Part shown: one piece after another, positions 1 to 32,660 of the stretch
Numbering within the stretch: position 1 is the first letter of the stretch
Layout: each line of letters begins with the position of its first letter
Assembly: GCA_004431415.1 (NCBI GenBank)
Contig: QPMI01000422.1
Location: 1 to 36,663 of the forward strand
DNA from: Cyanophora paradoxa CCMP329
Taxonomy: Eukaryota; Plantae; Glaucophyta
Direction of reading: 5' to 3'
DNA length: 36,663 bases
Translations under genes and position numbers: made by a program
The notes under the pieces: model-generated
Seen by the model: the letters and a program-made list of their open reading frames with translations, nothing else
What the model was told of the DNA's origin: nothing
The model's database searches: none

Positions 1-3000
1 CCTCACCGCCGGGGTCGAACCCGCAGCCTTCTACAAGGAGCTGCTGATGCAGCGGCTGGCCCAGGGCATGCAGGCGAGCGGGCCGCCGCCCCCCCCCCCC
101 CTTGCTCCTTGACCGCCCGGGGGTACAGGTGATTGCGACGGAGAGCTTCGTCGCTGAGCCTGCAAGCGGAGCGGCGGCTGCTGGGCGCCAAGGGCGGCCC
201 CCGCCCGCGTCGGCAGGTCCGCCCGCCCCTCTGCCCTCTCTCTTTCCCCTTGGTTAAAGTACAGAGTTTGGAGTCCACGATAGCTAACGTATGTACGATG
301 AATCTCGCTTAAGTTATAAGAAGTTAAAGTTGCTCTCTCTCCCTCCGCGCTCACTCTCGCTGCGCCGTGCAGCGCCTCAACGTCGGGGCCGGCGGCGGGC
401 AGTCGGCGCGGATCCGTCGCCGCGGTACCCTCGGTGCGCCTCGCCACCTCCCCCCCCTCCCTCACACACACAGACCCTCCCCCCCCCCCCCCCCCCCAAC
501 ACCCCCCCACCCCCTTCTCCCTCACCTCCTTCCGCCCGCTGAACGCCGGGCAGGGCTGGGTCCGGGGCGCCGCAGCGCTGCGTGTACAACCTCGGGATGC
601 GGCACCAGTACCACATTCTCACCTTCGACCACGAGAACAAGAACATCCAGATCAAGGCGCGAGCGTACCCCCTCGCCTCCTCCCCCCTACATCCGTCTTT
701 GCTTTTCGAGCCCCCCCCCCCCCCCCCTCCCCCCTCCCCCCCCCCCCCCCCCCCCGCAGCGGTACCAGGCGCGGGAGGACTCGCGGGAGGCCCCCGGGCC
801 CTGGGGCGTGTACCCTACATGCTCTGGGACTCCTGGGAGGGCGCTTCCTCCCCTGCCGGCGCGCACCCCCTCCCCCGCCCCGTTTTCGCCGTACCCGGCC
901 TTGATTCCCGACCGCAGGCGCGTCATCGAGCAGGTCCAGGTCTGCCCGCCCCTCCGCGGCGCCTGTACCCCCGCCCCGGCGCGGCCCGCCCCCGGCCGAC
1001 AGCTCGCCCCGCCACGCAGGACCACTACCGCTGGAAGCACCTCGACAGCTCATGACCTGCGGCTGCGCGCGTGCGCGGGAACCCTGCCTCCTTTCCTTCT
1101 GCTCCCCGCCCTGTTCCCCGCGGCGAACCTTCCTTAAAATTACTTCTAATAGAAAGTCAATAAGCTTGGGCGTTTACTTCTTATGGAGCTGCACGTACAG
1201 CTTATTTGGTTGAACAATTAAAAGACTAGGTTTTCATTATGCAACAAAAGCTGGAATCTCATGCCGCCCGACGACCCCGCTGCAGAGTGCACGCGCAGCA
1301 CCTGCCGGCGATGAAGAGCCGCCGCCTCCGCTTCGCCGTCATGCCCGTGCGCCCGCTCGGGAGGAGGGACGTTGTACAGCTAGGAGGGAGCCAGCTCGAG
1401 TCAACTAAGCTTTAATGCTTAACTAAAGTCTAACTGAAGAGAATCGCGCGCGCCACTCGCCTTTCTTCTGGCTTTGGTGACGCCGCGGGGCAGGGCCCGC
1501 TGCTGGTGCCCGTCCCCGGATCCGAGCCCGCCTCCTTCTTCTTCGCTGTACCCAGGCGGCCCCGGCCCCGCCGGCGCCGGCTCCGGCTCCGGCTCCGCGC
1601 CGGCCCCGGCGGCAGCTCCTCCCCCTCGGGCCTGGCCTGCTCAGAGGCGCCTCCGCCTCCGCCTCCGCCTCCGCCTCCGCCTCCTCCTCCTCCGCCGCCC
1701 GGGGCCGCTCCCGCGTGCTCCTCCACGAGCCGAACACGGTCCTCCTGCTCCGCCTGCGCTCCGGCCTCGCCGCCGCCGGCCACTCCGTCGTCCCGTGCCC
1801 CTCCCTCGACGCCGCCCTCGACGCGGCCCGCCGCGCCCCCCGCGCCCTCCGCCATCGTCGCGAGGGCGTCGGTCCTCCCCGCCCTCCGCCGCGCCGCCGA
1901 GCAGGCCGCCGGGGCCGGGGCGAGCCGCCCCTCTGCGTCGCCCTCGTACCCCTCGACCGGTGGGGCGAGCGCGCCGAGCTCGGCGCCGATGTGGTGCTCC
2001 CCGTCGGCTGCTCCCCGCAGCCGCCGCGCGCGCCCTCGACGCGTGCTCCCCGCGGCGGCGGCCGGCGCCGGCGCGGGGCGGCGGCGGAGGACGAGGAGCG
2101 GGCGGGGCGGGTCTCCGCCTTCCGGCTGCTGAGCCGGCACCTGCTCGGGCGGCCCTCGCGCGGCCTTGGCGTACCCCCCGAGGACGACTCCCCGACCTCT
2201 TCCAAGTCTTCGTCGTGCGTCCGCGCCTGTACCCCCCCTCTGCAGCTTCGTTCCTTCGTCAATGCGCGTACTTTCCCCCCTCCAGGACCCGGCCCCTCTG
2301 AGCAGCCCTCGAAGGCGGGCGCGGCGCCCCGCCCGCGCCGCGTCGGCCGTCGCGTCGTCGTCGGCGGCGGCCGCCTCGTCGGCGGTGGCGGCGGGCCGCA
2401 GCGGCTCGCCCGTGCCGATCGGCGTGTCCCCCGCGGCGCTCGCCCGGGCGGTCCGCGGCGTCCGCTCGAACTCGTTCTCCAACTCGCCCACCAACGCCCC
2501 GGCGGCGGCGCCGTTGCCGGCTCGGGCTTCGGGCAAGGCCCCGGGGGCGCCTTCGGGCCGCCCCCTGCGACGCAGAGGAGGCGGCGGCGGCCGTCGCGGC
2601 CGTCGCGGCGAGCGCGGCCTCCACGGGCGGGGCCTACGGCTTCGTCGGGCACGGCACGTGCGTCTACGAGGAGAACTACGGGGCGGAGGGCAAGGCGAGA
2701 GCTCCCCGCCCTCCTCGCGAGCCCTGCCTCCCGCCTCATCGAAGCCTATGCTCAGGTGACGACGGACGAGCACGGGCGGCCCGTCCTTCCGCAGCGCTTC
2801 ATCAAGGTGCCCCGGGCCCGCCGCCCTTGAGAGCCGCCCGCCCTCGAGGCCGCTTGGCTGCGGTCGGTCACGGCTGTCGCTGCTCGTTCCGCTTGTCGCG
2901 AGACTGCCTTTCTTCTTCCTCCCCGTACGCGTGCTTCTCGCGCCCGATCCCCCGCGGCAGGTGGCGATCGAGTCGGCGAACGAGGACGCCCGCGTCGAGT

Positions 3001-4428
3001 GGATCGTGCGCCCCCCCCCCCCCCCCCCTCCCCCCCCCCCTCCCGCCCTTCTCCTTCAAGGCCCCGCTGCGCATCCACGCCCCTCTCCCCAGAGCCCGCG
3101 ATGCTCACCTACACGCGCGCTCCGCCCTAGATCTCCGCCCCGCCCCTCTCTCTGAGTCGCACCCTCACGCCCGTGCCCGCGCCCCCGCCCCGCTCGCGCG
3201 GCAGGCGCTGCTGCACGACGCGACGTTCGCCCCGGACCGCGTCTGGTTCTTCGAGGCGCGCCCCGCCCCTCCCGGCCCGCCCCCCCCCGTTCTGCGCTGC
3301 TAGGATAGGGAAGGCCCCGCCCGGCTTGCACCTGCCTGCCGGCTAGGATAGAAAAGGCCGGCTATCCCCTCTTCCGGCCCGCCCCTCCCGCCCTTCCCGG
3401 CCGGCGCCTGCCGCCCACTCGGGCAAGAGAGATCCCGCCTGGAATTCGATCCCGCCCGGCCGCGGCCCGACCTCACGCCCTCCGCCCCGCCCCACAGGTC
3501 CACTGGCTCGTCTGCTCGGGCGTCGTCCGTGCGCCCCCCGCGCCCCGCGCGCCCCTCGGACTTCGCTCCGGCTGAGCGGCGGGGCGACGTCGACCTCGCA
3601 GTGGAGGACTTCACGAAGTACCTCTACCGCAAGACGGCCGCCTTCGCCGTGCCTCTCGTCCAGGTCCCCATCGAGCGGGTCCGTGCATCCGAGACCGTGC
3701 ACGTGGCCTAGAGCGCCTCCACTGGCTTCTTCTCTGTCGGCTCGGCCTTCCGGTCGCCCGCTTTGATTTCGCCCCTGCCCCCGCGCCCCGCCCCGGCAGG
3801 AGCCGCACGCGTCGGACCCGTTTCACGAGGGCCTCTGGATGGGGACCGTCGCCCCCGCCCTCCGCGCCCCCCTCCACGAGGCCCTCCTCCACCGCTTCCA
3901 GGCCCGGCCCCGACCCCGCCCCCGCCCTCGCCGCCCCTTCTGTTTGCGCGTCCACTAGTGCTTGGTCTGAGATCTCGCAGTTCGCGGTGGCCTCGGCCCC
4001 GCCGGGCGGCTGGTCGGCCGAGGGCGGCGACCGGCGCGACGCTCCCGTGCGCCCGCGGCCGCTCCCCGCCGCCTGTCGCTGCCGGCTTCGGCTTCTAACC
4101 GCTGCGGACGGGGCGCAGGAGGAGGGGGCCGGCGAGCAGCGGGGCCGGCAGCCGCTGGCGCGCTACGTCCACAGGTCCGGCGCCGCATTCCTCCGCCTCG
4201 AGCGCAGCGGCCTCTTCTGGTGCGCAGCCGAAGAAGAGAGTTGCTGAGACTCGCTCTTTTGCTGAGGTGTACCGCAGGGTGTCGAACTTCTTGCCGCAGC
4301 CTGCGCTGCGGGCGGCGGGGCGGGCGCTGCAGGGGACGCACGCGCAGCTGCGCGCCTTCCTGCTCGCCCTCGCCGCCGCCCGCGCCGCCGCACTCGAGAT
4401 CGCCGACGCCCTCCCCTGCTTCCCCTGA
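1..4428 (+). CDS. DEPDC5: Host GATOR1 subunit DEPDC5/IML1, 3' part of a multi-exon gene (start lies upstream of the window; exon boundaries only partly resolved)
   Basis: Exon peptides appear in DEPDC5 order: FYKELLMQRLAQGMQ (~29-73), YNLGMRHQYHILTFDHENKNIQIK|RY, YMLWDSW, HYRWKHLD, SRRLRFAVMP, LLHDATFAPDRVWFFE|VHWLVCSG, VEDFTKYLYRKTAAFAVPLVQVP, RYVHRSGAAFLRLERSGLFW|VSN. Stop TGA at 4426-4428. C-rich introns separate the exons. Confidence 0.8.
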
Positions 4429-4775
4429 GCCCGGGGCGGTCCGCCGCGAGCGCCCCTTCCCGCCCCGGCCAGTACTAGTACTAGTGCTTGGATGATAATG
4501 TTTCTTCGTCTGCAGCGCTAGCTGCCTCCCACATCTTTAATTTCTACGGCCCATCATTGTCAATCTACATACACGGCTCGACTCCATTCTTAGAGCTGAG
4601 GCGATGGCATCGGGCAATCTCATTGCAGCCGCGTGATAGAAGGCCGGAAGGCCGGCGCGCCGGCGGGAGAAGAGGCAAGGGGGCGACTCGGCAAGGCGGA
4701 GGGCGCGGCGAAAAGGGCGTGGGGCGGGGCGCCCCGCAGCTCTGGCGTCAACGCGCGTCGTACGTATATATAAGT

Positions 4776-5487
4776 TCAGCGCCGGATCGCTGCGGCGCAC
4801 GCCTCGAGCAGCGTCTCGACGCTGGCCGCTTTGCGCTTGTTCTGCACGGGGTACGGGATGGCCGTGCCCGCAAAGACGCCCCTCAGATCCTCCGGGATCT
4901 CCCCCGCTGGCGGAGCGGTCAGCCAGGCCTAGATCTAGAGCTAGGCGGGGGCTGGGGCGGGATGGCGGGGCGGACCGGAGGGGAAGGGGCAGGAGCTCTC
5001 GTCGTGGAGGAGGAGGATGGTCTTCTTGGCCCTGGCCGCGTGCCGGACCTCGCCCAGCGCGCCCGCGCTCTTCAGCACGTCTGCCCGGGCCGGGCCGGGG
5101 TCGACGTCAGAAGGGAAGCAACGTTAACGGAGCAGAGCATTTGAGAGGCAGGAGAGCGATCGATCGCGGGGGCGGGGGCGGACCCTGGGAGATGACGAGG
5201 ACGAAGTTCGCGGACGCGTCGATGGTCCGCTCGAGCCTGCGGGCCGGGGCGACGCGGCCGGTCAGCAGCGAGGCCAAAGGGCGCCCGCTGGACGAGGCGA
5301 GGGCCGAGGCCGGGGCGGGGGCGCACTCGGGCAGCTCGGGGCGGGGGTCGCCGGCGGGGAGGAAGACGCGGAGGCCCGGGCGGGTCTGCTCCAGGTGCAG
5401 CTTCAGGGCGGGGGCGAGCTGGCCCGCGCTGGCGCCGTGCGAGAGGAACACGTCGTAGGCGTACTGCCCCCCCGGCCCATCGCCCCC
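4776..5487 (-). CDS. Host TIR (Toll/IL-1R) domain exons, the 3' end of the LRR-TIR gene
   Basis: Splicing GT-AG introns 5081-5183 and 4907-4975 gives YAYDVFLSH...LKLHLEQTRPGLRVFL...TIDASANFVLVISQDVLKSAGALGEVRHAARAKKTILLLHDESSCPFPSAGEIPEDLRGVFAGTAIPY...IRR* (stop 4776-4778). This matches the TIR betaA YDVFLSH motif, betaC FVLVIS and the alphaC glutamate. Confidence 0.8.
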
Positions 5488-5699
5488 TACAGAAGATCAG
5501 AACTCGAAAGATATCATCGAAGCAGGCTCGGCCCAAAATGGATGCGCGTACCAGAGGCGCAGGCCGAAGAGGACGAGGGCCCGGCTGCCGGCTGCAGCGA
5601 GGACTAGGGGTGAGGGGCCGCGGAAGCAACACAGAGCGGCGGGCTCACGGCAGAACTGCCAGCGGCAGCGGGGCGTTGGCGACGGCCAAGCCCCCTGCC

Positions 5700-6242
5700 T
5701 CATCGCCTGCCTCCCCTCCCCTCCCCCTCCTCCTCCTCCTCGCTGTAGTAGTCCATCGGGTTCTTCTCTGTGTTGAGGCAGCGGAGCTTCGGGAGCCGCA
5801 TGACCTCCTTCGGCAGCTCCTCCAGCTCGTTGGCGTACAGGTCCAGCTCCTCGAGGCTCGCGAGCCGCCCCAGCGCCCGCGGCACCGAGCGCAGCCCGTT
5901 CCGCGCCAGGTCAAGCTTCCTCAGGTTCGCGAGCTGCCCGATCTCCCGCAGCGCCGAGCTCTCCAGCCAGTTGTCGCTCAACTCTAGCTCCCGCAGGCTG
6001 GAAAGGCGCCCGATCTCCCTCGGAAGCCTCCTCAGCTCGTTGCCCCACAACGAGAGCCTCTCCAGGTTCGTCAGCTTCGCGAGCTCCGCCCCGGGGATGT
6101 GCTGGAGCTTGTTCCGGCTGAGGTCCAGCACGCGGATGTTCTTGGGTCCCACCTGCTCGATCACGGCTGTCGGCCACGCCGTCAGCCCCTCGCTTGACAT
6201 GTTCAGCTCCGTCTCGGTGGGATTCCAGTATTTCCACCGGGC
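5700..6242 (-). CDS. Host LRR block 2 (exon of the LRR-TIR gene)
   Basis: LxxLxLxxNxLxxLPxEIGxL repeats. Joined in phase 0 to the upstream LRR exon by intron 6243-6326 (GAT|GTGAGT...TTGAC...ATGCAG|GCC). The frame beyond the TGA at 5700 is in phase with the downstream linker and TIR exons, and the stop sits among G-runs. Confidence 0.8.
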   Translation of the reverse strand, partial: ARWKYWNPTETELNMSSEGLTAWPTAVIEQVGPKNIRVLDLSRNKLQHIPGAELAKLTNLERLSLWGNELRRLPREIGRLSSLRELELSDNWLESSALREIGQLANLRKLDLARNGLRSVPRALGRLASLEELDLYANELEELPKEVMRLPKLRCLNTEKNPMDYYSEEEEEGEGRGGRR

Positions 6243-6326
6243 CTGCATGCGGAGTTGTCAATTGTAATTATGCATAAACCAGCCGGAAACCCCCGTAGTG
6301 AATGAAGGGAACAAGGCAGAACTCAC

Positions 6327-6936
6327 ATCTATGGTGGCGCCTGCAGGCGGCAGCTGCGGTTTGCAATAAGAATCGTGAGGCCTAGGGTACGTGAAAAAAC
6401 ACGGCGTGATCACCGACGCGTTCGAGGCGGCGAGGGATCGGAGGAAGGCAATCAGATCTTTGCGCGCATAGTTGGGCAGGCCTGTGAATGGGTTGCTGCT
6501 CTCTCGTATCCACCTCAGGCTTGCAATGCGGCCAAGCTCCGCCGGAAGAGTCAACAGCTTGCCGCCAAGGACGTGCAACTCCTCCAAGTTTGCCAGGCGC
6601 CCGATTTCCGACGGCAGTTCTGTAATCTCGAGATAGTCCAGGTTTAGAATTTTTAGGCTTGCGAGCTGCCCCATCTCCGGTTGCAGTGCTGTCAGCTTGT
6701 TTTGTCCCATCGAGAGTTCCACCAGGTTTGCAAGCTGCCAAATCTCAAGCGGCAGCACCGTCAGCTCGTTGCTGCTGATGTCGAGCTTCTTCAGGTGCAA
6801 GAGCCGCCCGATCTCCCGTGGCAGCGTCGCCAGCTTGTTTCTGCGCACGTAGAAGATCTGCAGATTCACAAGCTGGCCGATCTCCGCTGGTAGAGCCGTC
6901 AACTCGTTGTCATAAATGTAGAGCTGCTCCAGGCTC
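6327..6936 (-). CDS. Host LRR block 1, 3' half (downstream of the viral insertion)
   Basis: SLEQLYIYDNELTALPAEIGQLVNLQ... about 6 LRRs plus cap. The first ~36 aa of ORF 6258..7043 are viral TIR read-through. Confidence 0.88.
6931..6936 (+). repeat. Left target-site duplication AGGCTC
   Basis: Identical hexamer directly flanks the right end at 32655-32660. Confidence 0.95.
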
Positions 6937-7793
6937 GCTCGCATGGGGGTAGCCCCCACCAATTGCGCGACCTTCCCGCAACCATTTTCAATAAGCACAT
7001 TTTCAGCATCACGAATCTCAGTCACAAAATCACAAATTCGCACTGAGCCACATTGTATTTTTCAAACATCTAACCCTTCCTTACTGAAACCAATCACGAA
7101 ACCCTTTCATTCTTCATTTTTCTAATTCCTTACCATTCCCAGTAAGCCCTTTAACTTTCCCCCGATCTCTCAGTAAGGACAGTAAGACCCTCATTTTTAC
7201 GAAATGTTCCCGATCGTTTCCGGACTGTTTTCAGTTACCCAAATTGAAAAATCAAGGTGAGCCCCACCAATTAAACAAGTGATCCCCACTTAAAGACTTC
7301 CAGTTAATATACTGTAACAATGGCAAGCAATCAAGTAAATCTACCTGAGACTAAGCGGTGCAATGTTTGCGATAAGGTAAAACCGGCATCGAGTTATGCA
7401 TTGCAAAAGCGTAGCTCAGGGAATGTTACTTTAAATTGGAGATGCAAAGTCTGCGACCGAGACTATCACAATTACCTTTATCATTTCGTGTTAAAAACGC
7501 GTCCGAAAATCGAAGTGCAATCGAAGATATGCTCGCACTGCAAGATTGAGAAGCTTGCAAGTGAGTTTAATAAAAGACAAAGAACGAAGGATGGTCTCAA
7601 CTATCAATGCCGAGAGTGTTATAGCAAAACTCGTAAGAGTTAAACCGAATTTCATTTTATATTTTTTAAAGCGAGTATGTGCATGAGCAAGCATGCCGAA
7701 AATGCCCACCTGCACAAACTCGCGACTTCAATCGAAATGTTCCATTTAATGCACTGGAACCACTCGCGCCCCGCCACTATGCAAGATACATGC
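6937..7793 (+). repeat. Left terminal inverted repeat (857 bp)
   Basis: Reverse complement of 31799-32654. By eye I found one substitution (6980) and three 1-bp homopolymer indels. Confidence 0.95.
7320..7643 (+). CDS. TIR-encoded tandem zinc-finger protein, 107 aa (copy 1)
   Basis: Two KxCxxCxxxKxxxx(Y/F)...CKxC/CREC modules of the kind found in viral DNA-binding and endonuclease-associated proteins. Identical protein at 31949-32272. Confidence 0.8.
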   Translation: MASNQVNLPETKRCNVCDKVKPASSYALQKRSSGNVTLNWRCKVCDRDYHNYLYHFVLKTRPKIEVQSKICSHCKIEKLASEFNKRQRTKDGLNYQCRECYSKTRKS

Positions 7794-8041
7794 AAACTAC
7801 ATGCGAGTTATATGAAAAATAAAAATTCAGTCATGTATATATTTCGTATATATGTCCGAACCTCCGTGTATGTGATCCCGCGCAACTTTGAATTTTTGTG
7901 TTTTTTATGTTTTTTTCGCATATGACGACATATACATATATATACCGGCGTCACCGACATATTCGGGGTCATCACATCGCGGAGATTCCGAAACATATAG
8001 CATGCGATAGCGTAGTATTTTAACGTGGTCTGATCGGAATG

Positions 8042-8467
8042 TGATAAATCAGCTGATAGGGCTGATCGTAGTGTGATAAATCAGCTGATCGCCATCTGAT
8101 AAATCAGCTGATAGGGCTGATCGTAGTGTGATAAATCAGCTGATAGGGCTGATCGTAGTGTGATAAATCAGCTGATCGCCATCTGATAAATCAGCTGATA
8201 GGGCTGATCGTAGTGTGATAAATCAGCTGATCGCCATCTGATAAATCAGCTGATAGGGCTGATCGTAGTGTGATAAATCAGCTGATAGGGCTGATCGTAG
8301 TGTGATAAATCAGCTGATCGCCATCTGATAAATCAGCTGATAGGGCTGATCGTAGTGTGATAAATCAGCTGATCGCCATCTGATAAATCAGCTGATAGGG
8401 CTGATCGTAGTGTGATAAATCAGCTGATAGGGCTGATCGTAGTGTGATAAATCAGCTGATCGCCATC
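8042..8467 (+). repeat. Higher-order tandem array (ABAAB)x3
   Basis: A=TGATAAATCAGCTGATAGGGCTGATCGTAGTG (32 bp, 9 copies); B=TGATAAATCAGCTGATCGCCATC (23 bp, 6 copies). The 142-bp super-unit occurs three times exactly. Confidence 0.95.
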
Positions 8468-8493
8468 TGATAAATCGTGATGTGATCGCAGGA

Positions 8494-8670
8494 GATAGTA
8501 TAGCGGGATAGTATAACCCAGGGGTGATAGTATAGCCGGATAGTATAACCACGGGCGATAGTATAGCGGGATAGTATAACCCCAGGGGGCGATAGTATAG
8601 CCGGATAGTATAACCCCGGGCGATAGTATAGCGGGATAGTATAACCCCATAGCCGGATAGTATATAGTAT
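8494..8670 (+). repeat. Second tandem array, about five 31-34-bp units GATAGTATAGC(G/C)GGATAGTATAACC...GGG(C/T)
   Basis: Units start at 8494, 8526, 8557, 8591 and 8622, followed by a partial unit. GCGG and GCCG alternate. Confidence 0.9.
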
Positions 8671-9084
8671 CACCAGGCATAATAGCCGCCGGTATTTATT
8701 TACCGGAACACCGGCGATCGCGACTTCGCGGAGACCCCTTCCGTTTTTCCCGCATAACTTTGGACAGGAAGCGATCTCGGCGCGCTCTCAATTGCTACGT
8801 GCTCGTAACTTGCTTCCGGGCACGATGGTGCTACTTTGACTAGCTTACGCAACCGTGACGCGAAACCCCAGTTCGCCAACGGCACAAGTGCCCGAAAACC
8901 GAGGTGTCCGCTACATTCTGAGCGCCGGCGCGCGTTCCCCTGAGGCTCCACTAGTCATACTTTGCATCCGTGTGCGTATAGAGTAGTTCTACGCTAATAC
9001 AAAGCGGCGCGGTCAGATTCGCAAAGGGCGCGATTTGGCGGCTACGAAACCACATAGCTCACAAAAATATCGACTTAAATAATA

Positions 9085-9477
9085 ATGGATTCCAAATACC
9101 GCGGCTACCACGTTATGCTCGACTATATAACCGACCCGTTCACCGAGTCCCCGGAGGCATGCGCCGAGTGGATCACAGCGAACCTATCGCAATATATCAC
9201 AGATCGCAATATGCGCATCGTGCACCAGCACACATGCATTTTCGATGGCTCTATTTCCCCTCCCGGTTTCGCGATTGGCTTTCTATTAGATGAGTCGCAT
9301 GCCACAGCTCACTCTTATAGCGACCAGGGGCTATTAGCGATCGATATCTTTACATGCGGCTCAAATGCCGAAGCGAAGACAATGGGTATAGCACAGGACA
9401 TTAACGAACTCATACAAGAAAGGCTGAAAGTTCGAAAGTGGGACTTACAGGTCGAGCAAAGGTTCCCAATTTCATAA
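9085..9477 (+). CDS. speD: Prokaryotic-type (short, class 1b) pyruvoyl-dependent S-adenosylmethionine decarboxylase proenzyme, 130 aa
   Basis: GYHVMLD N-terminus, PPGFAIGFLLD-E|SH-ATAHSY self-cleavage site and AIDIFTCG motif match the SpeD/SpeH family. Confidence 0.88.
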   Translation: MDSKYRGYHVMLDYITDPFTESPEACAEWITANLSQYITDRNMRIVHQHTCIFDGSISPPGFAIGFLLDESHATAHSYSDQGLLAIDIFTCGSNAEAKTMGIAQDINELIQERLKVRKWDLQVEQRFPIS

Positions 9478-9502
9478 AAAATGAAAAAAGCGACATATAC
9501 AT

Positions 9503-9817
9503 TTAATGTTCCTTGATCGGAAACTTGCCCATTAGCGGGTGATCGAGACCCATGACATACCAGGATTTCATAACGGGATCCCAGCGGGCTCTCTCAGCCT
9601 TCGCTTGATCCTTAAATTCATAAGGAATATCGAGGTAAACCTTCACGTTTCTTTGATACACTTGCTCATAGCTTAGAGTTTTGAACTGAGAGCATAGGGG
9701 GTGATCTTTCTTCGTGACATACCAGCATGAATTCTCACGATCCCACTTTCCACCGAGGGATTTCGCAACGTCTTTTTTATCAAACGGAATATCAATAAAA
9801 TGCTTTTCACCCTCCAT
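9503..9817 (-). CDS. Tandem DUF5710-like domain protein, 104 aa
   Basis: Two repeats, IDIPFDKKDVAKSLGGKWDRENSCWYV and LDIPYEFKDQAKAERARWDPVMKSWYV. Confidence 0.8.
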   Translation of the reverse strand: MEGEKHFIDIPFDKKDVAKSLGGKWDRENSCWYVTKKDHPLCSQFKTLSYEQVYQRNVKVYLDIPYEFKDQAKAERARWDPVMKSWYVMGLDHPLMGKFPIKEH

Positions 9818-9830
9818 CTCTTTTATATTT

Positions 9831-9850
9831 ACCGGAGAAAATAATTTCGG
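9831..9850 (-). promoter_or_regulatory. Conserved upstream motif (minus strand CCGAAATTATTTTCTCCGGT) before the DUF5710 gene
   Basis: 20-bp exact copy at 15597-15616; 13 bp separate it from the ATG at 9817. Confidence 0.65.
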
Positions 9851-9856
9851 GGTTTG

Positions 9857-11239
9857 TTATGAACGAGATGACCGAAGAATGCGCGTAGTAGGGGCTGTGT
9901 AGCTTGCGCTCTGATTCTTGAATGATTTATACCACCGCTGACTGTTTACCTCTGAGAGCTTCTCGGTTCCCGCAATCGTTAATTTAGCGAGCTCCCTCAG
10001 CGCCCTCTTTGTCTTTTCTGCGCGATCTTCCAATAAAGCCCCTTTCGGAACACTTGCGGCGACATCTATGCCTTCTTTTTGAACCTGCCGGATCGAAGCT
10101 GCCTCTACATCAGCCGCTAAAATAGCGTTGCCTGATGGCTCGACCACAGCTTCGACCTCTGTAATGATCTGCAATTCGTGCGGCTTAAAAAGCTTCGGCA
10201 TTACGTTCCCCGCTGCATCTTGCACCTCTATCGCGTTTCCTCTCCTTCCCGCAATTTTGTAGACCTCTCGGCTATACCTTTGGGTCGCTCCTTTATCAAA
10301 CTTTGATCTCGGCAATAATACACGGACGTGGAGACCCGGCTTAAAGTCGCTGAATATATCCTTTACGATTGTGTTCTTCTTTGAAATAATAGCCGCTCGG
10401 ATCCGCTCCATATCAGAAAGCTTAACATCTGCGGGTTTCATTCCTATGGTTCTGTGAATGGTGTTATTATAATTGAAAACGAAGTCGTCCAATTTGTCCA
10501 TGAATCGAACTGTATTATAAGCGACACAGTAATTGTTTATCATCGTTTTTAAGGTCAAATGAAAGCGATTCATTATTCCCAGAGAAGTGTGATCTCCGAC
10601 CTGTTTAAAGCGGTGCTCTATTCCATTATTTTTTACGACCTCCTGAAACTCCTTCGCAATGAATTCCGAACCGTTATCTGTCTCCAATCGAATCATCGGA
10701 GCCGGGAGCTCTGTGAGCATCTCCGCAAAAGCGGCGGCAACACTTGCGCCCTCCTTATTCTTTAACTTCTTGGCATATGCTTTTCGGCTTGTCATCTCGA
10801 TGAGAGTAAGGACTGCAATGTAGCCGGAATTATAGCTGCCATATGAGAGATAAAAGATGAGATCGGCTTGGTAGCACCACGGCGGGGCTGTGATGGGAAT
10901 AAAAGCGGTTTGGGTCGGTGCGGGGGGCTTCTTGTTGATCTGCATAAATTCTTGTTTCGCTGCGACATCTTGCACTTCTTTCAGTGTGAGGGTCTTGTCC
11001 TCTTTTCTCAGCTCTTCGTACAATGCCGATGGGTTCTTAAAACCTGTTTTTGGGTCATACATGCGGCGCACGATCTTAGAGGACGGGTTAGCAATGCTAA
11101 AAGGAACATCTCCTAATAAATTTGATTTTGCTTGGCGTTTTGTGATTTTTTGGGGGACTTGCTCAGTTTCAGGAACCGCGATAGGTAGTATGGTGGTCTC
11201 TGTCTCCTCGCCCGCTACCCTTCTAACGATCCGTGACAT
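9857..11239 (-). CDS. Polinton-type retroviral-like (rve) integrase, 460 aa
   Basis: YQADL (D1), ETDNGSEF (D2), LGIMNRFHLTLK (N in place of E, 35 residues after D2), YNNTIHRTIGMKP, and C-terminal FKPGLHVRV...FDKG...YSREVYKI typical of Polinton integrases. Confidence 0.93.
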   Translation of the reverse strand: MSRIVRRVAGEETETTILPIAVPETEQVPQKITKRQAKSNLLGDVPFSIANPSSKIVRRMYDPKTGFKNPSALYEELRKEDKTLTLKEVQDVAAKQEFMQINKKPPAPTQTAFIPITAPPWCYQADLIFYLSYGSYNSGYIAVLTLIEMTSRKAYAKKLKNKEGASVAAAFAEMLTELPAPMIRLETDNGSEFIAKEFQEVVKNNGIEHRFKQVGDHTSLGIMNRFHLTLKTMINNYCVAYNTVRFMDKLDDFVFNYNNTIHRTIGMKPADVKLSDMERIRAAIISKKNTIVKDIFSDFKPGLHVRVLLPRSKFDKGATQRYSREVYKIAGRRGNAIEVQDAAGNVMPKLFKPHELQIITEVEAVVEPSGNAILAADVEAASIRQVQKEGIDVAASVPKGALLEDRAEKTKRALRELAKLTIAGTEKLSEVNSQRWYKSFKNQSASYTAPTTRILRSSRS

Positions 11240-11257
11240 TCTTCTAATTAAACCTGT

Positions 11258-14200
11258 TTATTTTTTGCTGCAATTGCACCCGTGATGCACGAGCTGGCAA
11301 TTGTCTTTAAGATGTGGGCGCCTGTTGTTTATGCGATCCACGACGAGCTTGTAATTCGGATCTTGTGGCTCAGTCGGAATAGGAAGGGAACAGAGCGCAC
11401 AGGCGCCCTTCTGTTGCTTCTTGCGCTCTAATATCCACTCCGGCGTAATATAATCCGCCTCATCGAAATCGCGCCCGGCACGCTGATCCTGGCATTTGTA
11501 ACCGCGGATCTTCCCTTTCAGATACTCGATGTAGTCACTCTTTCCTTGGAACTTGTGAATCGGTGTATAAATCAGCACAGTAGACAGATCGCGGTTACGA
11601 GTGAGCGCGGTATAGAACCATTCGCGAGTGGTATAGCGGAACGTAGCCTCACAAATGACAATGCCCGAATCAAGTGTGAGACCTTGCGTTGAATGACCTG
11701 TTCCTGCATAAGGGAGAGAAAAATGTTCTAACATCGCGCACGGAACCTCAAACGTGACACCATCGAAAACGTCCGTTAATGTGACCATTTGCTTTGTGAT
11801 TTTGGTGATTCGATAGGTGTAATTCGTGTATGCGTTTATAGACTCGCCCTCAGACCGCGAAATGCGTAGATACTTGCGGCAAACGACTTCCAAACCCTTG
11901 TAGAATTTGATGCCATTGACCTCTACGGTTGGGATATTTACTTTGCGTCTATCGTGCATCAGTTTGTTGTAGGCTAAGGTCATTTCGTTTCTGTAAGCGA
12001 TGCCAAAGTAGCCGTCGGGAATAGCGCTTAGATCATTAATTGTCGGCAACCCGTATTTCGAGATAATCTGTGCGGCTTCCAGTCCGTTCTCGAAGAGATC
12101 CTCTTTAATCGCCCGAATTAATTCACGGTCTGTCTCCTTCTTGTGCCGCTTGTTAATGCGTAGACTCAGGACGTTAGGGAACATGCTCTGCACAGCGCGC
12201 TTATAGTAGCCCTTGCGATCAGAAACCGATAGCTCATCATTAATCGGTTCGTTCTGATAGGTATCGCCATTAGCCAAATATTTGATATCCGGATAGCGAT
12301 CGATAAACGACTTGATCTTAGCGAGATCTTTTACGGAATACGCGAATATCTCGTCGAACATAATGTGACTGAACTCGGAGACGAACGCCCTCTGGTCTTT
12401 TTCGCTCATAGCCTCTTCGTAGGTCTGATCATTTGAGACACGGATCCCGAGAACATTATATAAAGTACGAACGGTAATATTCTCGATTCCGCGGACTTTG
12501 AGAGAGTCCCTCAGCTCCGCGCACTGTTTGTTATAGGGGCAAATAACTAAGCAATTCGACTTTTGAGATGCGAAACAGTTAATACCGAGTGTCGACTTTC
12601 CACTTCCGGGCATGTCAGCAAGGACAAGCATACGATTATGGAGCTTCGCAACCCAATTAAAGCACTCCGGATTAAATTCGTCCCTCAGCGAGAACCGGTT
12701 AATGAGTGTCTCGGGATCCTGAAATTCGAGAGTTACACCCCGTGGTGGGCGGAGTGCATTCTCAGGGCATCTTTTCCCGGGAATATAGCTGAATTTGCCC
12801 ATGTTCTCAAACGCATTTCGGTCGAACTCTTTCTTACTTGTCCATGAACCTTCGATATATAGGCAATCCGTTCTGATCCCGGCAACCTTGTGCCCGCGCG
12901 CTGTCAGGCGCTTGTATTGCGCAAACATATTGGCACGGTTGCGATCGTAAATATGAAAGTGGATAGGAAGGAATCCGTTAACGAGCTCGCGGTGGGAGCT
13001 GATCTTAACGAAATAGATGTGACCTTCGAATTCGCTAAGAGTTTTGACACGTTTCGAATTCTTAGGATTGAAAGTAAACACCTCTACTGTTCCTCCGCAT
13101 TCTTGGGCGAACCTCTCAGCCTCGGCACGGTTGTAGAACATTTTCGTGGATGTTTGCGAGTCTTGGAATTTGCCGAGCATTCCGATCTCTTTCACTAAAA
13201 TGTGCTTCTTATCTGTGGTTTGAATGTCACTTGAAAGTACTTTCTTCATCTCCGAGATCGAAGTATTGGGCACCAAATGCGAAGGCTCCGCGACCGCGAT
13301 AATCTCTATCTTGTCCTTTACGTCCGCCCAATGCATGGAGAGAGTGTAGCCTGTCATGAAATTATAACAGCGACCACTCACGGAAAATGCGCGATCCAGT
13401 ATAATTTCGATTCCATCAATCTTGCGAGACATGGCGGCATCATAATCAATATCCTCGTCGTCTGCGAAAGTTGCTTGCTCTCTCTCAAACGCAACGACAC
13501 GCACGTAGTAGATCGCGTATTCGAGAATATCGCTTCCCGCTTTAAAGGGAACGAAGTCATCAAACACATTGTATTTCGGAAGATATTGCATGCCTTTCAG
13601 TATCGAAGGGTAGCACTTCGCCATATCGACAGCTGTGTAGGTAGCTTTCGGGTTCGGCTTATAGAAATAGCCGCTTAGTGCGGATCGCTTGTAGTGCGTG
13701 AGAATTTCGCGCATATTCGGGCTGTAATGTGAGATATTCGTCGCATTTAGAAGCGACTCGCGGAATCCCTTCCCGATTTCACAGACCTTATTATAATACT
13801 CCTCTGTTTCGAAATCTTGCTCAATAAAGTGGTCTGTTGTGCGTGGATCTTTGATAGAGAACATCGAGCCATTAGCTTTGAATGTGATGCTGTCGATCTG
13901 TTTCGATGGTGTTAGCTTCACTGCGGGTTCATATCGCATTTTCAGGAACGTAAATAGAAGACCTTCCAGACCTTCGCGCCCAGTATACAGAATGCGGATG
14001 AAACTGCGCTCGTCGGGCGATAGTTTAAGTTGCGTGATCTTTAACAAATCCTTGGATGTGTGCGCGAAGATATCGTGAGTAAGACACGTCGGAATTTTAT
14101 AGAGTGCTAACGAAGAGGTCGACTTAGGAACATGATTATCGAGCTCTTCGACCTCCATCTTCGCCATGCGCATTTCGAGCGACTTGATGTTATCGTTGAA

Positions 14201-15574
14201 TATATAGATGTGCTTGTTGTGAATCATAAAGTGAATATTGCGGGGAAAGATGTTTTTGTTAATTGATTCCGCCGCGAATTTGTGTATTAACTTTCCGTCG
14301 ACATCAAAGACGCGGAAGCCTGTCTGAATTCTCTTACAGAATTTCTCGATATGGCGGAGGGTGAGAGCCAGAGAGTCGCCAGGTGTGCGTTCGCGACCGT
14401 GAAAGAATTTATAGAGACCGTCGTAGGACATAGTTAAGTCAGTATATCGCGGTTTTGGCGCGTCCTGACACTTCTTAATGGACGCTCCCCATGTGGAGAT
14501 GATCATATCGTATCCGCAAGCGTTAGATGTAGATGATTTGGGAAGCTCAATAACATCTTCGAACTCAGACGCGTTTGGATTTAATGTGTAGTCTGTGAAT
14601 TTGCTCATAATCGCGGTGCATCGCATGCTGTCCGTAAGCTCCTCATCCAGAAACGCATAGCGATTGCCAGGGATAGCACCGGCTCCGTCATCTTCGACAC
14701 CTTCGTCCCCATCGATCACGACCTCATGAACAGTTATAAAGGCATCATCGATACTGCCGCCAAGATCATCAAATATTAGGCGTAGTCTTTTCTGTTCCTC
14801 GGTTGGTGGTGTCTTAAAGAAGAACACCTCGTATGCTTCGCCGAAAGTTTTAAGTCCTACTGCCAATTCATCGTAGTTTTTGAGTAAATAGAAGATTGAT
14901 TCGCTCTCATGCCAATCATGACGAACTTGACCCGGTCTAATTATAATTTGAGACATTCTATCCATTTTCGCCAGAGCAAAGCTTCGCAACACACTCACCG
15001 AAACTGTCTCTCTTATCTTGCGGTAGGTGACAAAGGTTCTGTCTGGCATATTTACTTCGGGAATTCCGGGAATAACAAATACCTCCGACGACCGAGCACC
15101 GGATCCAGGTCCCCATAGATTGAACGTAATTGTTGCGAGAGTTTCCGGATCGTATGCGGCGATTGGATCGAGAATAGTGCGTTTAATTGCATCCTCTACC
15201 GTTTTTAGTTTACCTCTCTGCTGCTTTGCTTCGAGCTTCGCTTCTTTCGCTCGTTTCTGTTCTTGCTTGCGATCGAAGCGCTGTAAACGCTTAGCCTCTT
15301 GTTCTTTTTGCTTTTGCTTTTCTATGTTAACTTGGGTGCGAGCGGCGCGCTTTTCTTTCCGCTCTGCCCTGCGGAAAACGCGGGGATTAATGATGCCATT
15401 CAGAGTATCCCGAATGTCGATCAGCGTTTGGAGCTTGGGCTTCCGATTCATTGTGTTGTGCATCGCCCAATGCGCCTGTTCTTCGGTTAGCAAATCCTGA
15501 CTCAATCCCTGCATAATGTATCCGATAATTTCATCCCGAACATTGTTAGCGATTCTGTTGGTTGCGCGCGGCAT
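11258..15574 (-). CDS. Fusion of divergent family-B DNA polymerase, SF1 (RecD/Pif1-like) helicase and C-terminal HNH/His-Me finger domain, 1438 aa
   Basis: PolB motif A AVDMAKCYPS, motif B KKHILVKEIGMLGK, motif C GIRTDCL. Helicase Walker A MPGSGKS, Walker B MFDEIF, GDTYQN, TGHSTQGLTL, YTALTR. C-terminus CALC...VDRINNRRPHLKDNCQLVHHGCN. Confidence 0.88.
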   Translation of the reverse strand: MPRATNRIANNVRDEIIGYIMQGLSQDLLTEEQAHWAMHNTMNRKPKLQTLIDIRDTLNGIINPRVFRRAERKEKRAARTQVNIEKQKQKEQEAKRLQRFDRKQEQKRAKEAKLEAKQQRGKLKTVEDAIKRTILDPIAAYDPETLATITFNLWGPGSGARSSEVFVIPGIPEVNMPDRTFVTYRKIRETVSVSVLRSFALAKMDRMSQIIIRPGQVRHDWHESESIFYLLKNYDELAVGLKTFGEAYEVFFFKTPPTEEQKRLRLIFDDLGGSIDDAFITVHEVVIDGDEGVEDDGAGAIPGNRYAFLDEELTDSMRCTAIMSKFTDYTLNPNASEFEDVIELPKSSTSNACGYDMIISTWGASIKKCQDAPKPRYTDLTMSYDGLYKFFHGRERTPGDSLALTLRHIEKFCKRIQTGFRVFDVDGKLIHKFAAESINKNIFPRNIHFMIHNKHIYIFNDNIKSLEMRMAKMEVEELDNHVPKSTSSLALYKIPTCLTHDIFAHTSKDLLKITQLKLSPDERSFIRILYTGREGLEGLLFTFLKMRYEPAVKLTPSKQIDSITFKANGSMFSIKDPRTTDHFIEQDFETEEYYNKVCEIGKGFRESLLNATNISHYSPNMREILTHYKRSALSGYFYKPNPKATYTAVDMAKCYPSILKGMQYLPKYNVFDDFVPFKAGSDILEYAIYYVRVVAFEREQATFADDEDIDYDAAMSRKIDGIEIILDRAFSVSGRCYNFMTGYTLSMHWADVKDKIEIIAVAEPSHLVPNTSISEMKKVLSSDIQTTDKKHILVKEIGMLGKFQDSQTSTKMFYNRAEAERFAQECGGTVEVFTFNPKNSKRVKTLSEFEGHIYFVKISSHRELVNGFLPIHFHIYDRNRANMFAQYKRLTARGHKVAGIRTDCLYIEGSWTSKKEFDRNAFENMGKFSYIPGKRCPENALRPPRGVTLEFQDPETLINRFSLRDEFNPECFNWVAKLHNRMLVLADMPGSGKSTLGINCFASQKSNCLVICPYNKQCAELRDSLKVRGIENITVRTLYNVLGIRVSNDQTYEEAMSEKDQRAFVSEFSHIMFDEIFAYSVKDLAKIKSFIDRYPDIKYLANGDTYQNEPINDELSVSDRKGYYKRAVQSMFPNVLSLRINKRHKKETDRELIRAIKEDLFENGLEAAQIISKYGLPTINDLSAIPDGYFGIAYRNEMTLAYNKLMHDRRKVNIPTVEVNGIKFYKGLEVVCRKYLRISRSEGESINAYTNYTYRITKITKQMVTLTDVFDGVTFEVPCAMLEHFSLPYAGTGHSTQGLTLDSGIVICEATFRYTTREWFYTALTRNRDLSTVLIYTPIHKFQGKSDYIEYLKGKIRGYKCQDQRAGRDFDEADYITPEWILERKKQQKGACALCSLPIPTEPQDPNYKLVVDRINNRRPHLKDNCQLVHHGCNCSKK

Positions 15575-15596: not shown

Positions 15597-15616
15597 ACCG
15601 GAGAAAATAATTTCGG
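15597..15616 (-). promoter_or_regulatory. Conserved upstream motif before the PolB-helicase gene
   Basis: Plus-strand ACCGGAGAAAATAATTTCGG, identical to 9831-9850; 22 bp separate it from the ATG at 15574. Confidence 0.65.
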
Positions 15617-16165: not shown

Positions 16166-16178
16166 ACCGGAGAAAATA
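16166..16178 (-). promoter_or_regulatory. Conserved upstream motif (TATTTTCTCCGGT) before the AT-hook gene
   Basis: Minus strand reads TATTTTCTCCGGTTATAGTAAATG directly into the start codon. Confidence 0.6.
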
Positions 16179-16281
16179 GTTTTTTGTCACTCTGTATTAT
16201 TTCCCTTGCCCTTATATACCTTTTACCGAAACCTTCAATTTTTGCGCTCGGATCGATACAAGCGCCACCGAAATTCACCGC

Positions 16282-16716: not shown

Positions 16717-16765
16717 CGATCCTACAAGGACGCAACGTATTAAATATCGGAGAAAATAAAAGGGA

Positions 16766-17606: not shown

Positions 17607-18473
17607 TTATCTTCTCTTACATTTGATTAACATTTTCTTTTTCTTAGGCGAAATTTGCGAAAGTTTGGGGATACCTTCAAGCTCACGCTCAAATTTGGAT
17701 AAAGTTCGACAGACAGTTGTCGAATCTTTGACAGGCGGCGGTTTTGTCGCTTGCTCCTCTTGTTGTTTGCGCTTCTTTTCTTCAAAAGCCGCCCGCTTGT
17801 GGAATTTAGTAAACGGATGGTCATCGATCATATCGGCTTTTTCGACCCACCATCGCACAGAATACCCGGTATTATCGTGAATGATCGCTTGGTAGCTATG
17901 ACAGAATTCTTGGAACATGCGCTTAAAACTCTCTTTATCCATGTTCCCGAACTCTTCGTGATATGCTTCAAACTCTCGCATGTTTGACCAGCTTAGGAAT
18001 ATGATATACTCCGCATTGCTGCGAATGATCGTTGAAAGCTTTGTTAGTTTCTGCGATATTAAAGCGACGCTACAAAACGTATGACGACCTTGCGCCATCA
18101 ATTTATTTAGCAAATGATCGCGCGAGAGATCAATAGTTCCCGATTCCAAACAATCGTCGAGCACGATGAGAATATTCTTTGGTTTCTTACCCGCAATGAT
18201 AGCCTTTTTGCGGGCTTCTATGATCGACTCTACGTATTCCGGTTTCCAGGTGTCATGTACTTCGTCTGTTATTTGACCCCAGAAACCGTTAAAACTCGTA
18301 GGACAGAAAACCAGAACATACGAGATCTGGTCTTCGAGTTCTTTGATCAGCCACTTTAAGAATACCGATTTACCACAATTGGTTTTCGCCAATAGGAGAA
18401 ATCGTGCGGGAAGTTTCACCCTCTGTTTCGGGTTCCATTCTTCGAGATCCATGGGCGTTGTCCCTTTTTGCAT
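17607..18473 (-). CDS. A32-like (FtsK-HerA) genome-packaging ATPase
   Basis: Walker A LLAKTNCGKS, Walker B ILIVLDD, QGRH arginine finger, LISQK and IRSN. First ATG at 18473. Confidence 0.92.
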   Translation of the reverse strand: MQKGTTPMDLEEWNPKQRVKLPARFLLLAKTNCGKSVFLKWLIKELEDQISYVLVFCPTSFNGFWGQITDEVHDTWKPEYVESIIEARKKAIIAGKKPKNILIVLDDCLESGTIDLSRDHLLNKLMAQGRHTFCSVALISQKLTKLSTIIRSNAEYIIFLSWSNMREFEAYHEEFGNMDKESFKRMFQEFCHSYQAIIHDNTGYSVRWWVEKADMIDDHPFTKFHKRAAFEEKKRKQQEEQATKPPPVKDSTTVCRTLSKFERELEGIPKLSQISPKKKKMLIKCKRR

Positions 18474-31798: not shown

Positions 31799-32654
31799 GC
31801 ATGTATCTTGCATAGTGGGCGGGGCGCGAGTGGTTCCAGTGCATTAAATGGAACATTTCGATTGAAGTCGCGAGTTTGTGCAGGTGGGCATTTTCGGCAT
31901 GCTTGCTCATGCACATACTCGCTTTAAAAATATAAAATGAAATTCGGTTTAACTCTTACGAGTTTTGCTATAACACTCTCGGCATTGATAGTTGAGACCA
32001 TCCTTCGTTCTTTGTCTTTTATTAAACTCACTTGCAAGCTTCTCAATCTTGCAGTGCGAGCATATCTTCGATTGCACTTCGATTTTCGGACGCGTTTTTA
32101 ACACGAAATGATAAAGGTAATTGTGATAGTCTCGGTCGCAGACTTTGCATCTCCAATTTAAAGTAACATTCCCTGAGCTACGCTTTTGCAATGCATAACT
32201 CGATGCCGGTTTTACCTTATCGCAAACATTGCACCGCTTAGTCTCAGGTAGATTTACTTGATTGCTTGCCATTGTTACAGTATATTAACTGGAAGTCTTT
32301 AAGTGGGGATCACTTGTTTAATTGGTGGGCTCACCTTGATTTTTCAATTTGGGTAACTGAAAACAGTCCGGAAACGATCGGGAACATTTCGTAAAAATGA
32401 GGGTCTTACTGTCCTTACTGAGAGATCGGGGGAAAGTTAAAGGGCTTACTGGGAATGGTAAGGAATTAGAAAAATGAAGAATGAAAGGGTTTCGTGATTG
32501 GTTTCAGTAAGGAAGGGTTAGATGTTTGAAAAATACAATGTGGCTCAGTGCGAATTTGTGATTTTGTGACTGAGATTCGTGATGCTGAAAATGTGCTTAT
32601 TGAAAATGGTCGCGGGAAGGTCGCGCAATTGGTGGGGGCTACCCCCATGCGAGC
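31799..32654 (-). repeat. Right terminal inverted repeat (856 bp)
   Basis: Reverse complement of 6937-7793; ends ...GGGGGCTACCCCCATGCGAGC. Confidence 0.95.
31949..32272 (-). CDS. TIR-encoded tandem zinc-finger protein (copy 2)
   Basis: Same 107-aa sequence as 7320-7643. Confidence 0.8.
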   Translation of the reverse strand: MASNQVNLPETKRCNVCDKVKPASSYALQKRSSGNVTLNWRCKVCDRDYHNYLYHFVLKTRPKIEVQSKICSHCKIEKLASEFNKRQRTKDGLNYQCRECYSKTRKS

Positions 32655-32660
32655 AGGCTC
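32655..32660 (+). repeat. Right target-site duplication AGGCTC
   Basis: Matches 6931-6936. Confidence 0.95.

Follow-up and report, generated by a model that had tools for sequence, protein, structure and literature searches.

The window analysed here comprises 36,663 nucleotides from the glaucophyte Cyanophora paradoxa CCMP329 (assembly GCA_004431415.1, contig QPMI01000422.1, positions 1 to 36,663, forward strand). It contains an integrated polinton-like virus (PLV), recognized by its terminal inverted repeats, its target-site duplication, an integrase and an A32-type packaging ATPase; this element spans 25.7 kb and has a GC content of 0.446, against 0.705 in the left and 0.599 in the right flank. 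Close to its left end, on the forward strand, an ATG-initiated open reading frame (ORF) at 9085..9477, stop codon included, encodes a SpeD-fold pyruvoyl decarboxylase proenzyme of 130 amino acids. An earlier note on this DNA had described the product as a stand-alone, bacterial-type S-adenosylmethionine (SAM) decarboxylase (AdoMetDC) which might drain SAM as a device against methylation. The evidence presented below tilts the balance towards another substrate, L-arginine.

The decarboxylase gene and its product

The product of the gene matched the Pfam family PF02675 (AdoMet_dc) with 45.2 bits for a cut-off of 25 and an E-value of 1.3e-11. In the alignment with Protein Data Bank (PDB) entries, residues E70-S71-H72 fell on E62-S63-H64 of the T. 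maritima AdoMetDC, H76 on H68 and C91 on C83, this cysteine being located in the DIFTCG motif (D87-I88-F89-T90-C91-G92), and the acidic D80 was found where the T. maritima enzyme carries E72. The E-S-H triplet, the histidine and the cysteine aligned in the same manner with the AdoMetDC structures from T. maritima and Aquifex aeolicus taken together (1tlu, 1vr7, 2iii). Residues S71, H76 and C91 were invariant across 75 aligned members of the clade, and they constitute the Ser/His/Cys set named for self-processing and catalysis by Li et al. (JBC 2023, PMC10407285). The AlphaFold2 model built on these 75 relatives reached a mean pLDDT of 96.6, and its top five PDB matches in Foldseek were chains of the class-1b AdoMetDCs 2iii, 1vr7, 1tlu and 1tmi, with TM values of 0.69 to 0.79 and a sequence identity of 19 to 25% to the best of them (2iii, 1vr7 and 1tlu).

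The protein is an intact class-1b SpeD-fold proenzyme in which the Ser/His/Cys triad is kept. The earlier note had said as much from the E|SH site and the DIFTCG motif, and the Pfam match, the alignment to T. maritima and the model all agree with it. Its term "bacterial-type" holds for the fold class, 1b, and does not hold for the nearest relatives, which are found in giant-virus contigs, protists and Marine Group II (MGII) archaea. Cleavage is predicted between E70 and S71; residues 1-70 would then form the beta chain and residues 71-130 the alpha chain. In the short-read contigs of four DNA runs, the gene presented three substitutions and no indel among the differences listed; two of these substitutions read as synonymous and one as E108D. 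The segment 8700-9020, immediately before the gene, has a GC content of 55-61%, above that of the element.

Arginine versus S-adenosylmethionine as the substrate

A proline is invariant among bona fide AdoMetDCs but not among the arginine decarboxylases (ADCs) derived from SpeD (Li et al. JBC 2023, PMC10407285). In the 130-residue protein its position is occupied by S79: the segment reading HTWPE in the T. maritima and Aquifex enzymes reads HSYSD, and the Ala or Ser located two residues before the catalytic serine is replaced by the clade-invariant D69. Among phage SpeDs, the same segment reads HT[WY]PE in S-PM2, S-TIM5 and the Bacillus phage speH and, by eye, HTFPE in P2559S; the enzymes of S-PM2 and P2559S are validated AdoMetDCs (PMC9992855). 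Proline at the position of S79 was found in none of the 144 readable motifs from the best 150 representative matches, in none of 15 viral-contig proteins and in none of 80 MGII proteins, and all 144 readable motifs shared the signature DESH..AH[CSA]Y[SAT][DE]. Scored with the NCBIfam model TIGR03330, the equivalog of the B. subtilis-type AdoMetDC, the protein obtained 48.9 for a cut-off of 75.65, and the phage controls obtained 133.1 (S-PM2), 96.9 (S-TIM5) and 63.3 (P2559S).

A different type of the family, the ornithine decarboxylase (ODC) SpeDC, was considered separately and rejected. Its domains read ..ETSL.SGHF..Y.D.FSCK (Fig. S5 of Li et al., PMC10407285), the protein reads DESHATAHSY..IDIFTCG, and the diagnostic Gln, Thr, Phe and Tyr are missing from their positions.

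The relatives of the protein were collected in several sequence collections. A HMMER scan of 1.84 billion representatives returned 293 matches at E<=0.001, the best being 41% identical over two tandem copies, and one representative of the clade comes from Chromulina nebulosa (EukProt). A word-index homolog search with the single protein had given no homolog, and a single-sequence scan of viral contigs 0 loci; they were replaced by HMMER and by searches starting from an alignment, among them an alignment-based IMG/VR scan with 18 loci, the neighbours of 13 of which were scanned with Pfam. In prokaryotes, with one genome per species, 485 relatives were confirmed; the best 80, which were analysed, all belonged to MGII/Poseidoniales archaea and were 38-54% identical to the protein. 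Of these 80 MGII loci, 79 had a gene of the deoxyhypusine synthase (DHS) family directly downstream, at a distance of a few dozen bases at most, and 29 an arginase-family gene upstream; in 80 metagenome loci the corresponding neighbours were present in 75 and 14 cases.

This is the speB-speDA-speY arrangement described for an MGII/III euryarchaeote and a Poseidoniales metagenome-assembled genome by Li et al. (PMC10407285), who showed that the enzymes of these two archaea decarboxylate L-arginine alone and fail to complement an E. coli speD mutant. In the same paper, 11 SpeDA candidates were assayed (Table S1), both eukaryotic ones included: all were active on L-arginine and none on ornithine or lysine. 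The two archaeal enzymes belong to one supported SpeDA clade, which unites MGII/Poseidoniales, Gimesia maris, Solirubrobacter and the intron-bearing genes of Nannochloropsis gaditana and Tribonema minus, stramenopile algae with arginine-only enzymes.

Domain fusions point to the same chemistry in part. Among 28 long matches, the SpeD-like domain was joined to an arginase in one, to DHS in five and to an NNMT-like methyltransferase in four, two of which also contain DHS (P0041 and P0044, the others being P0114 and P0143). The DHS part of P0041 was nearest to the NCBIfam models "homospermidine biosynthesis protein" and "1,9-bis(guanidino)-5-aza-nonane synthase", at scores far below their cut-offs. 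Other matches carried a single PQ-loop membrane domain (P0004, P0014, P0034 and P0036) or were tandem duplications (P0001 and P0010). PQ-loop proteins include cationic amino-acid exporters, and such a role of the PQ-loop partners would suit an enzyme acting on arginine.

A maximum-likelihood tree was computed for 67 rows, chosen from 238 domain rows plus two metagenome-locus ORFs and the full-length P2559S; they comprised 41 of the 150 representatives, 8 of the 80 MGII genes, 11 of the 15 viral-contig genes, two of the three best metagenome loci and four phage SpeDs. The four Pro-bearing phage SpeDs (S-PM2, S-TIM5, P2559S and the Bacillus phage speH) were split from the 63 other rows, including the protein, with a support of 100/100. 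The protein was sister, at 81/68, to P0003 and three further sequences, two of them from the metagenome loci L107 and L109; it belonged to a 7-row cluster (90/85) and to a 31-row group of protist-like and viral sequences (81/97).

Taken together, these comparisons of sequence and gene order give a chance slightly better than even that the gene encodes a virus-borne pyruvoyl L-arginine decarboxylase of the SpeDA type and not a SAM decarboxylase. Following the chemistry of the family, the proenzyme would cleave itself between E70 and S71, and S71, then the first residue of the alpha chain, would be converted to the pyruvoyl group. The amino group of the substrate would form a Schiff base with this pyruvoyl, H76 and C91 would complete the decarboxylation, and L-arginine would be converted to agmatine, substrate and product being suggested by the relatives. 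The host, through agmatinase or through agmatine deiminase and N-carbamoylputrescine amidohydrolase, could then convert agmatine to putrescine and onwards to higher polyamines. More polyamines may serve the replication or translation of the virus or the condensation of its DNA, a benefit suggested by the viral literature (PMC9992855). Both the fallback of the earlier note, namely raised polyamines, and its caveat about homologs switched to arginine or ornithine fit the evidence.

The element itself provides no partner for such a pathway. Families of spermidine synthase, agmatinase, DHS, agmatine deiminase and N-carbamoylputrescine amidohydrolase had no match in its 15 main ORFs at E<=0.01, nor had polyamine-related families in 74 further stop-to-stop frames of at least 60 amino acids inside the element at E<=0.001. 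The gene is therefore stand-alone with no spermidine synthase in the element, as previously noted. The surroundings of the homologs were scanned in 16 viral or virus-context loci (13 from IMG/VR and three from metagenomes), and in none of them was a polyamine partner gene found within 7 kb.

Several observations weigh against arginine as the substrate. The ADCs, taken together, show little divergence from AdoMetDC (PMC10407285), so that the proline rule is the only sequence discriminator, and the TIGR03330 test is imperfect since the validated P2559S also falls below its cut-off. The MGII loci were taken as orthologues of the assayed enzymes from their taxon and gene order, and the speB/speY linkage is present only in archaeal and fused relatives, the element and the viral homologs being without such neighbours. 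Moreover, the MGII genes lie elsewhere in the ingroup; since the protein is outside their subclade and its nearest groupings are supported only at 81/68 and 90/85, its specificity could have changed. Two SpeDs from algal giant viruses, HaV01 and YSLPV2, are validated AdoMetDCs (PMC9992855). Finally, SET-domain fusions occur in two of the 28 long matches (P0021 and P0073) and a SET-domain gene lies 4.5 kb from the homolog in the viral contig L018, which hints at a link with SAM-dependent methylation; the methyltransferase genes found near homologs in two loci, together with the SET fusions, have no explanation if the substrate is arginine.

The alternative that survives best is a bona fide SAM decarboxylase, which would supply decarboxylated SAM (dcSAM) to the host spermidine synthase and raise spermidine during virus replication, an effect established for SpeDs of several phages and phycodnaviruses. 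We consider it unlikely, while giving it real weight. The Pfam and NCBIfam matches name AdoMetDC models only, and the residues for processing and catalysis are all kept, with D80 acidic at the position of the T. maritima E72, but the fully conserved proline is absent and the split from the Pro-bearing SpeDs is supported at 100/100. Validated stand-alone AdoMetDCs exist in phages and in two algal giant viruses (PMC9992855), and one of the validated enzymes, P2559S, is likewise below the equivalog cut-off; the archaeal members of the clade, however, lie in clusters of the Arg-specific speDA type, and no spermidine synthase was found in the element or, in the 16 loci scanned, at up to 7 kb from the homolog.

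A further switch within the protist and giant-virus subgroup, to L-ornithine, L-lysine or an amino acid of another kind, is improbable. Several changes of substrate are known in the family (PMC10407285), the subgroup of the protein is outside the MGII subclade and 40-47% identical to the MGII genes, and the PQ-loop and SET partners are confined to non-MGII members. On the other hand, the diagnostic residues of the ODC type are absent from the protein and the 11 assayed SpeDA candidates were active on arginine, none of them with ornithine or lysine (PMC10407285).

Alternatively, SAM could still be the substrate, and the enzyme, as a sink of SAM or a source of dcSAM, would blunt the methylation of DNA or histones, with the provirus escaping silencing or a co-infecting giant virus being sabotaged, and the SET and methyltransferase fusions being the trace of a SAM-linked role throughout this clade of protists, giant viruses and PLVs; this we regard as very improbable. 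In the form given by the earlier note, where the drain of SAM or the inhibitory dcSAM acts against methylation silencing of the provirus or against a helper giant virus, the proposal appears extremely improbable. It would agree with a gene present alone, with no aminopropyltransferase in the element, with relatives fused to SET (2 of 28) and to NNMT-like methyltransferases (4 of 28), and with a D12 DNA methyltransferase near the homolog of the viral contig L001 and the SET gene near that of L018. It needs SAM specificity, against which the proline rule and the clade speak, and the NNMT-like fusions carry DHS or share a subclade with DHS, which fits polyamine chemistry. The slow kcat of the ADCs, 0.02-0.5 s-1 (PMC10407285), would make a poor sink, and the available parts of PMC10407285 and PMC9992855 describe no SpeD homolog with such a role. 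A SAM sink is thus not favoured, given the absence of the proline, a TIGR03330 score of 48.9 against 75.65 and the position in a separate clade with the Arg-specific speDA cluster type. That the gene is a decaying passenger with no current function is hardly credible: the copy of the element does have broken frames (a split patatin gene and no long ORF over 25-31 kb), but this ORF is intact, keeps all invariant residues of the clade, gives a confident model and presents no indel and three substitutions among the differences listed in the short-read contigs of four DNA runs.

The carrier element and other viral carriers

The left terminal inverted repeat, of about 838 bp, covers 6937..7775 and the right one 31818..32654; the two match in three adjoining pairs of segments, with 100% complementarity in each pair. 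Both arms are directly abutted by AGGCTC, an exact target-site duplication of 6 bp (6931..6936 and 32655..32660), the footprint expected of the rve integrase of the element. The identity of the arms suggests a recent insertion or arm homogenisation. Each arm contains a copy of a Cys-rich ORF of 107 amino acids (7320-7643 on the left, 31949-32272 on the right), with a weak match to a Stc1-like zinc finger. The arms and the duplication, together with the integrase and the ATPase, support the earlier proposal that the carrier of the decarboxylase gene is a small integrating eukaryotic virus.

The interval separating the decarboxylase gene from the left arm contains two tandem-repeat arrays, one with a 142-bp unit repeated 3.1 times and nested periods of 23, 32 and 55 bp (8030-8476) and one with a 31-bp unit repeated 4.9 times (8494-8664). 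The depth of the short-read contigs over 8030-8664 is 10- to 50-fold below that of the rest of the element, so that these arrays probably vary between copies. On the other side, a DUF5710 protein with two repeats is encoded on the reverse strand (9503..9817), convergent with the decarboxylase gene and with 25 nt between the stop codons. Further genes on the reverse strand are an rve-family integrase of 460 amino acids (9857..11239; PF00665, 50.6 bits), a replication protein of 1438 amino acids with a C-terminal SF1 (UvrD-like) helicase region (11258..15574; all Pfam matches below cut-off) and the A32-type packaging ATPase (17607..18473; PF04665, Pox_A32, 41.3 bits). The last approximately 60 residues of the replication protein are rich in Cys and His and resemble an HNH-type nuclease by eye, with no Pfam support.

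An ORF of 437 amino acids on the reverse strand (18532..19845) is a candidate major capsid protein, from language-model look-alikes and its position among the genes. The look-alikes are viral clusters in which 12-33% of the members contain Capsid_N or Capsid_NCLDV. The AlphaFold2 model, made from a 2-sequence alignment, had a pLDDT of 29.9; hhalign against the capsid candidates of the viral contigs L012, L013 and L018 gave a probability of 3%, a PDB profile search nothing below E 0.59 and the viral-contig scan no relative. Only one homolog, with 60% identity, was present in a collection of 5.8 billion proteins, from which we conclude that this virus lineage is rare in databases.

Not all frames of the element are complete. 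A patatin-like lipase is split into two (22805-23170 and 21678-22784), and the approximately 6.8 kb between 25000 and 31800 contains no ATG-started ORF longer than 99 amino acids. This ORF-poor stretch ends with a C1q domain frame on the forward strand (30929-31435, 31.7 bits) and is preceded by ORFs of the same strand at 23584-25076; it resembles a gene for a long fibre or adhesin, broken, spliced or mis-assembled. The short-read contigs have one extra base at 22814, 23399, 23471, 25044, 25140, 25294, 25513 and 25617, and all four runs likewise have one in the host flank at 5640 and at 5669; some broken frames may therefore be single-base errors of the assembly or defects specific to this copy. 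Rfam gave no match anywhere in the window.

A 14-nt motif, ATTATTTTCTCCGG, is probably the own promoter motif of the element: it had four matches with 0-2 mismatches for 0.49 expected, all on the reverse strand (9832-9845, 15598-15611, 16167-16180 and 16747-16760) and each 20-45 nt ahead of a gene (those for the DUF5710, replication, AT-hook and 144-amino-acid proteins), and looser copies precede the capsid candidate. It was not found upstream of the decarboxylase gene, which is thus probably under its own control.

Sequences of this stretch were present in 17 DNA runs of one organism. Four of these runs had single element contigs (6913-12000) with 15 to 40 times the depth of single host-flank contigs (3000-6912), as in run X1 with 1,480-4,020 for the element and 90-106 for the flank, and many element contigs were 95-99% variants. 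Contig depth is not equal to copy number; the pattern of depth and variants would fit tens of copies in a multi-copy family, or an episomal form. Three putative RNA runs gave scattered contigs of 151 nt with a depth of 2-5, one of them at 9094-9244, which are indistinguishable from DNA carry-over and were not used.

Homologs of the decarboxylase are found in other viruses. The three best metagenome loci, with 42-47% identity to the protein, have giant-virus contexts, with an Erv1 thiol oxidase, RNase III, a D5-type helicase and a GH46 chitosanase among their neighbours and, in L109, an NCLDV major capsid protein. In the IMG/VR loci, the neighbours were giant-virus-like in L005-L008 (RNA polymerase Rpb2, ribonucleotide reductase, poly(A) polymerase, a D5 primase with intein and eIF-1A), L003 and L004 contained DVNP and a match to DNA gyrase B (PF00204), and L002 was a phage contig. 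The presence of the nearest relatives in giant-virus contigs suggests that genes move between giant viruses and the small viruses with which they share hosts.

Four other contigs (L012, L013, L014 and L018) look like a separate PLV-like lineage carrying the same enzyme family. In L012 (18.9 kb) and L018 (20.1 kb), a primase-helicase, a 125-amino-acid SpeD-like gene, an A32 ATPase and a capsid candidate of about 450 amino acids, with double jelly-roll and virophage capsid families among its look-alikes, form a common layout, which an ORF comparison also showed in L013 and L014. Their SpeD-like genes belong to a different subclade from that of the C. paradoxa element, and the other proteins of the element had no match at E<=1e-3 in the 18 viral and 80 metagenome loci. 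The carriers of the homologs are consequently not close relatives of the element, and the different subclades fit separate acquisitions. SpeD-like genes are a recurrent cargo of small PLV-like genomes and giant viruses. The gene is therefore not confined to this element, members of its clade being present in small PLV-like contigs and in giant-virus contigs.

Relation to known systems and significance

The protein shares with the SpeDA enzymes (PMC10407285) the fold, the Ser/His/Cys triad and the Pro-less signature DESH..AH[CS]Y[SA][DE], and its MGII relatives, 38-54% identical, are found in the same type of cluster. It differs from these systems in that its gene stands alone in a virus and has neither a DHS-like nor an agmatinase-like neighbour, and in its position outside the MGII subclade. 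Viral homologs of SpeD were described by Li et al. (PNAS 2023, PMC9992855): AdoMetDCs of S-PM2, P2559S, phiYS40, phiN3, HaV01 and YSLPV2, an ADC of the pelagiphage HTVC201P and ODCs of uncultured phages. Like these phage and giant-virus SpeDs, the protein is a small PLP-independent enzyme that constitutes a single polyamine gene in a virus; here only class 1b is concerned, and the identity to any phage record was at most 32%, over partial lengths. The carrier is also different, an integrating PLV of about 25 kb, and such viruses are outside the scope of the PMC9992855 survey, whose text does not name polintons and has virophages only in the title of a reference.

Other comparisons are more distant. 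Phage T3 encodes a SAM-degrading enzyme which lowers SAM; it is unrelated to the protein of the element in sequence and chemistry, and a likeness would exist only if the latter used SAM. Multi-domain "AdoMetDC" fusions of diatoms were reportedly proposed by Michael (FEBS Lett 2011) to build long-chain polyamines. Two relatives in the 31-row group of the protein, P0041 and P0044, are likewise fusions, with NNMT-like and DHS domains, whereas the protein itself is single-domain and viral.

Full-text literature searches gave no report in which PLVs, polintons or virophages are connected to this enzyme or to polyamines; one paper on polinton-like viruses and a decarboxylase concerned phosphatidylserine decarboxylase (PMC11633385). 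Viral SpeD homologs and the switch to arginine were already known, and what is new here is the PLV carrier and the corrected call of function. The label "S-adenosylmethionine decarboxylase" is probably wrong for the whole clade (293 representative clusters at E<=0.001), whose members come from MGII archaea, protists, giant viruses and PLV-like contigs. The protein, small and of soluble size, offers a cheap and direct test case for the proline rule that separates AdoMetDCs from SpeD-derived ADCs. If the assignment is true, virus-encoded polyamine enzymes, known for phages and giant viruses, would extend to the smallest eukaryotic double-stranded DNA viruses, in whose genomes of about 25 kb every kilobase is costly.

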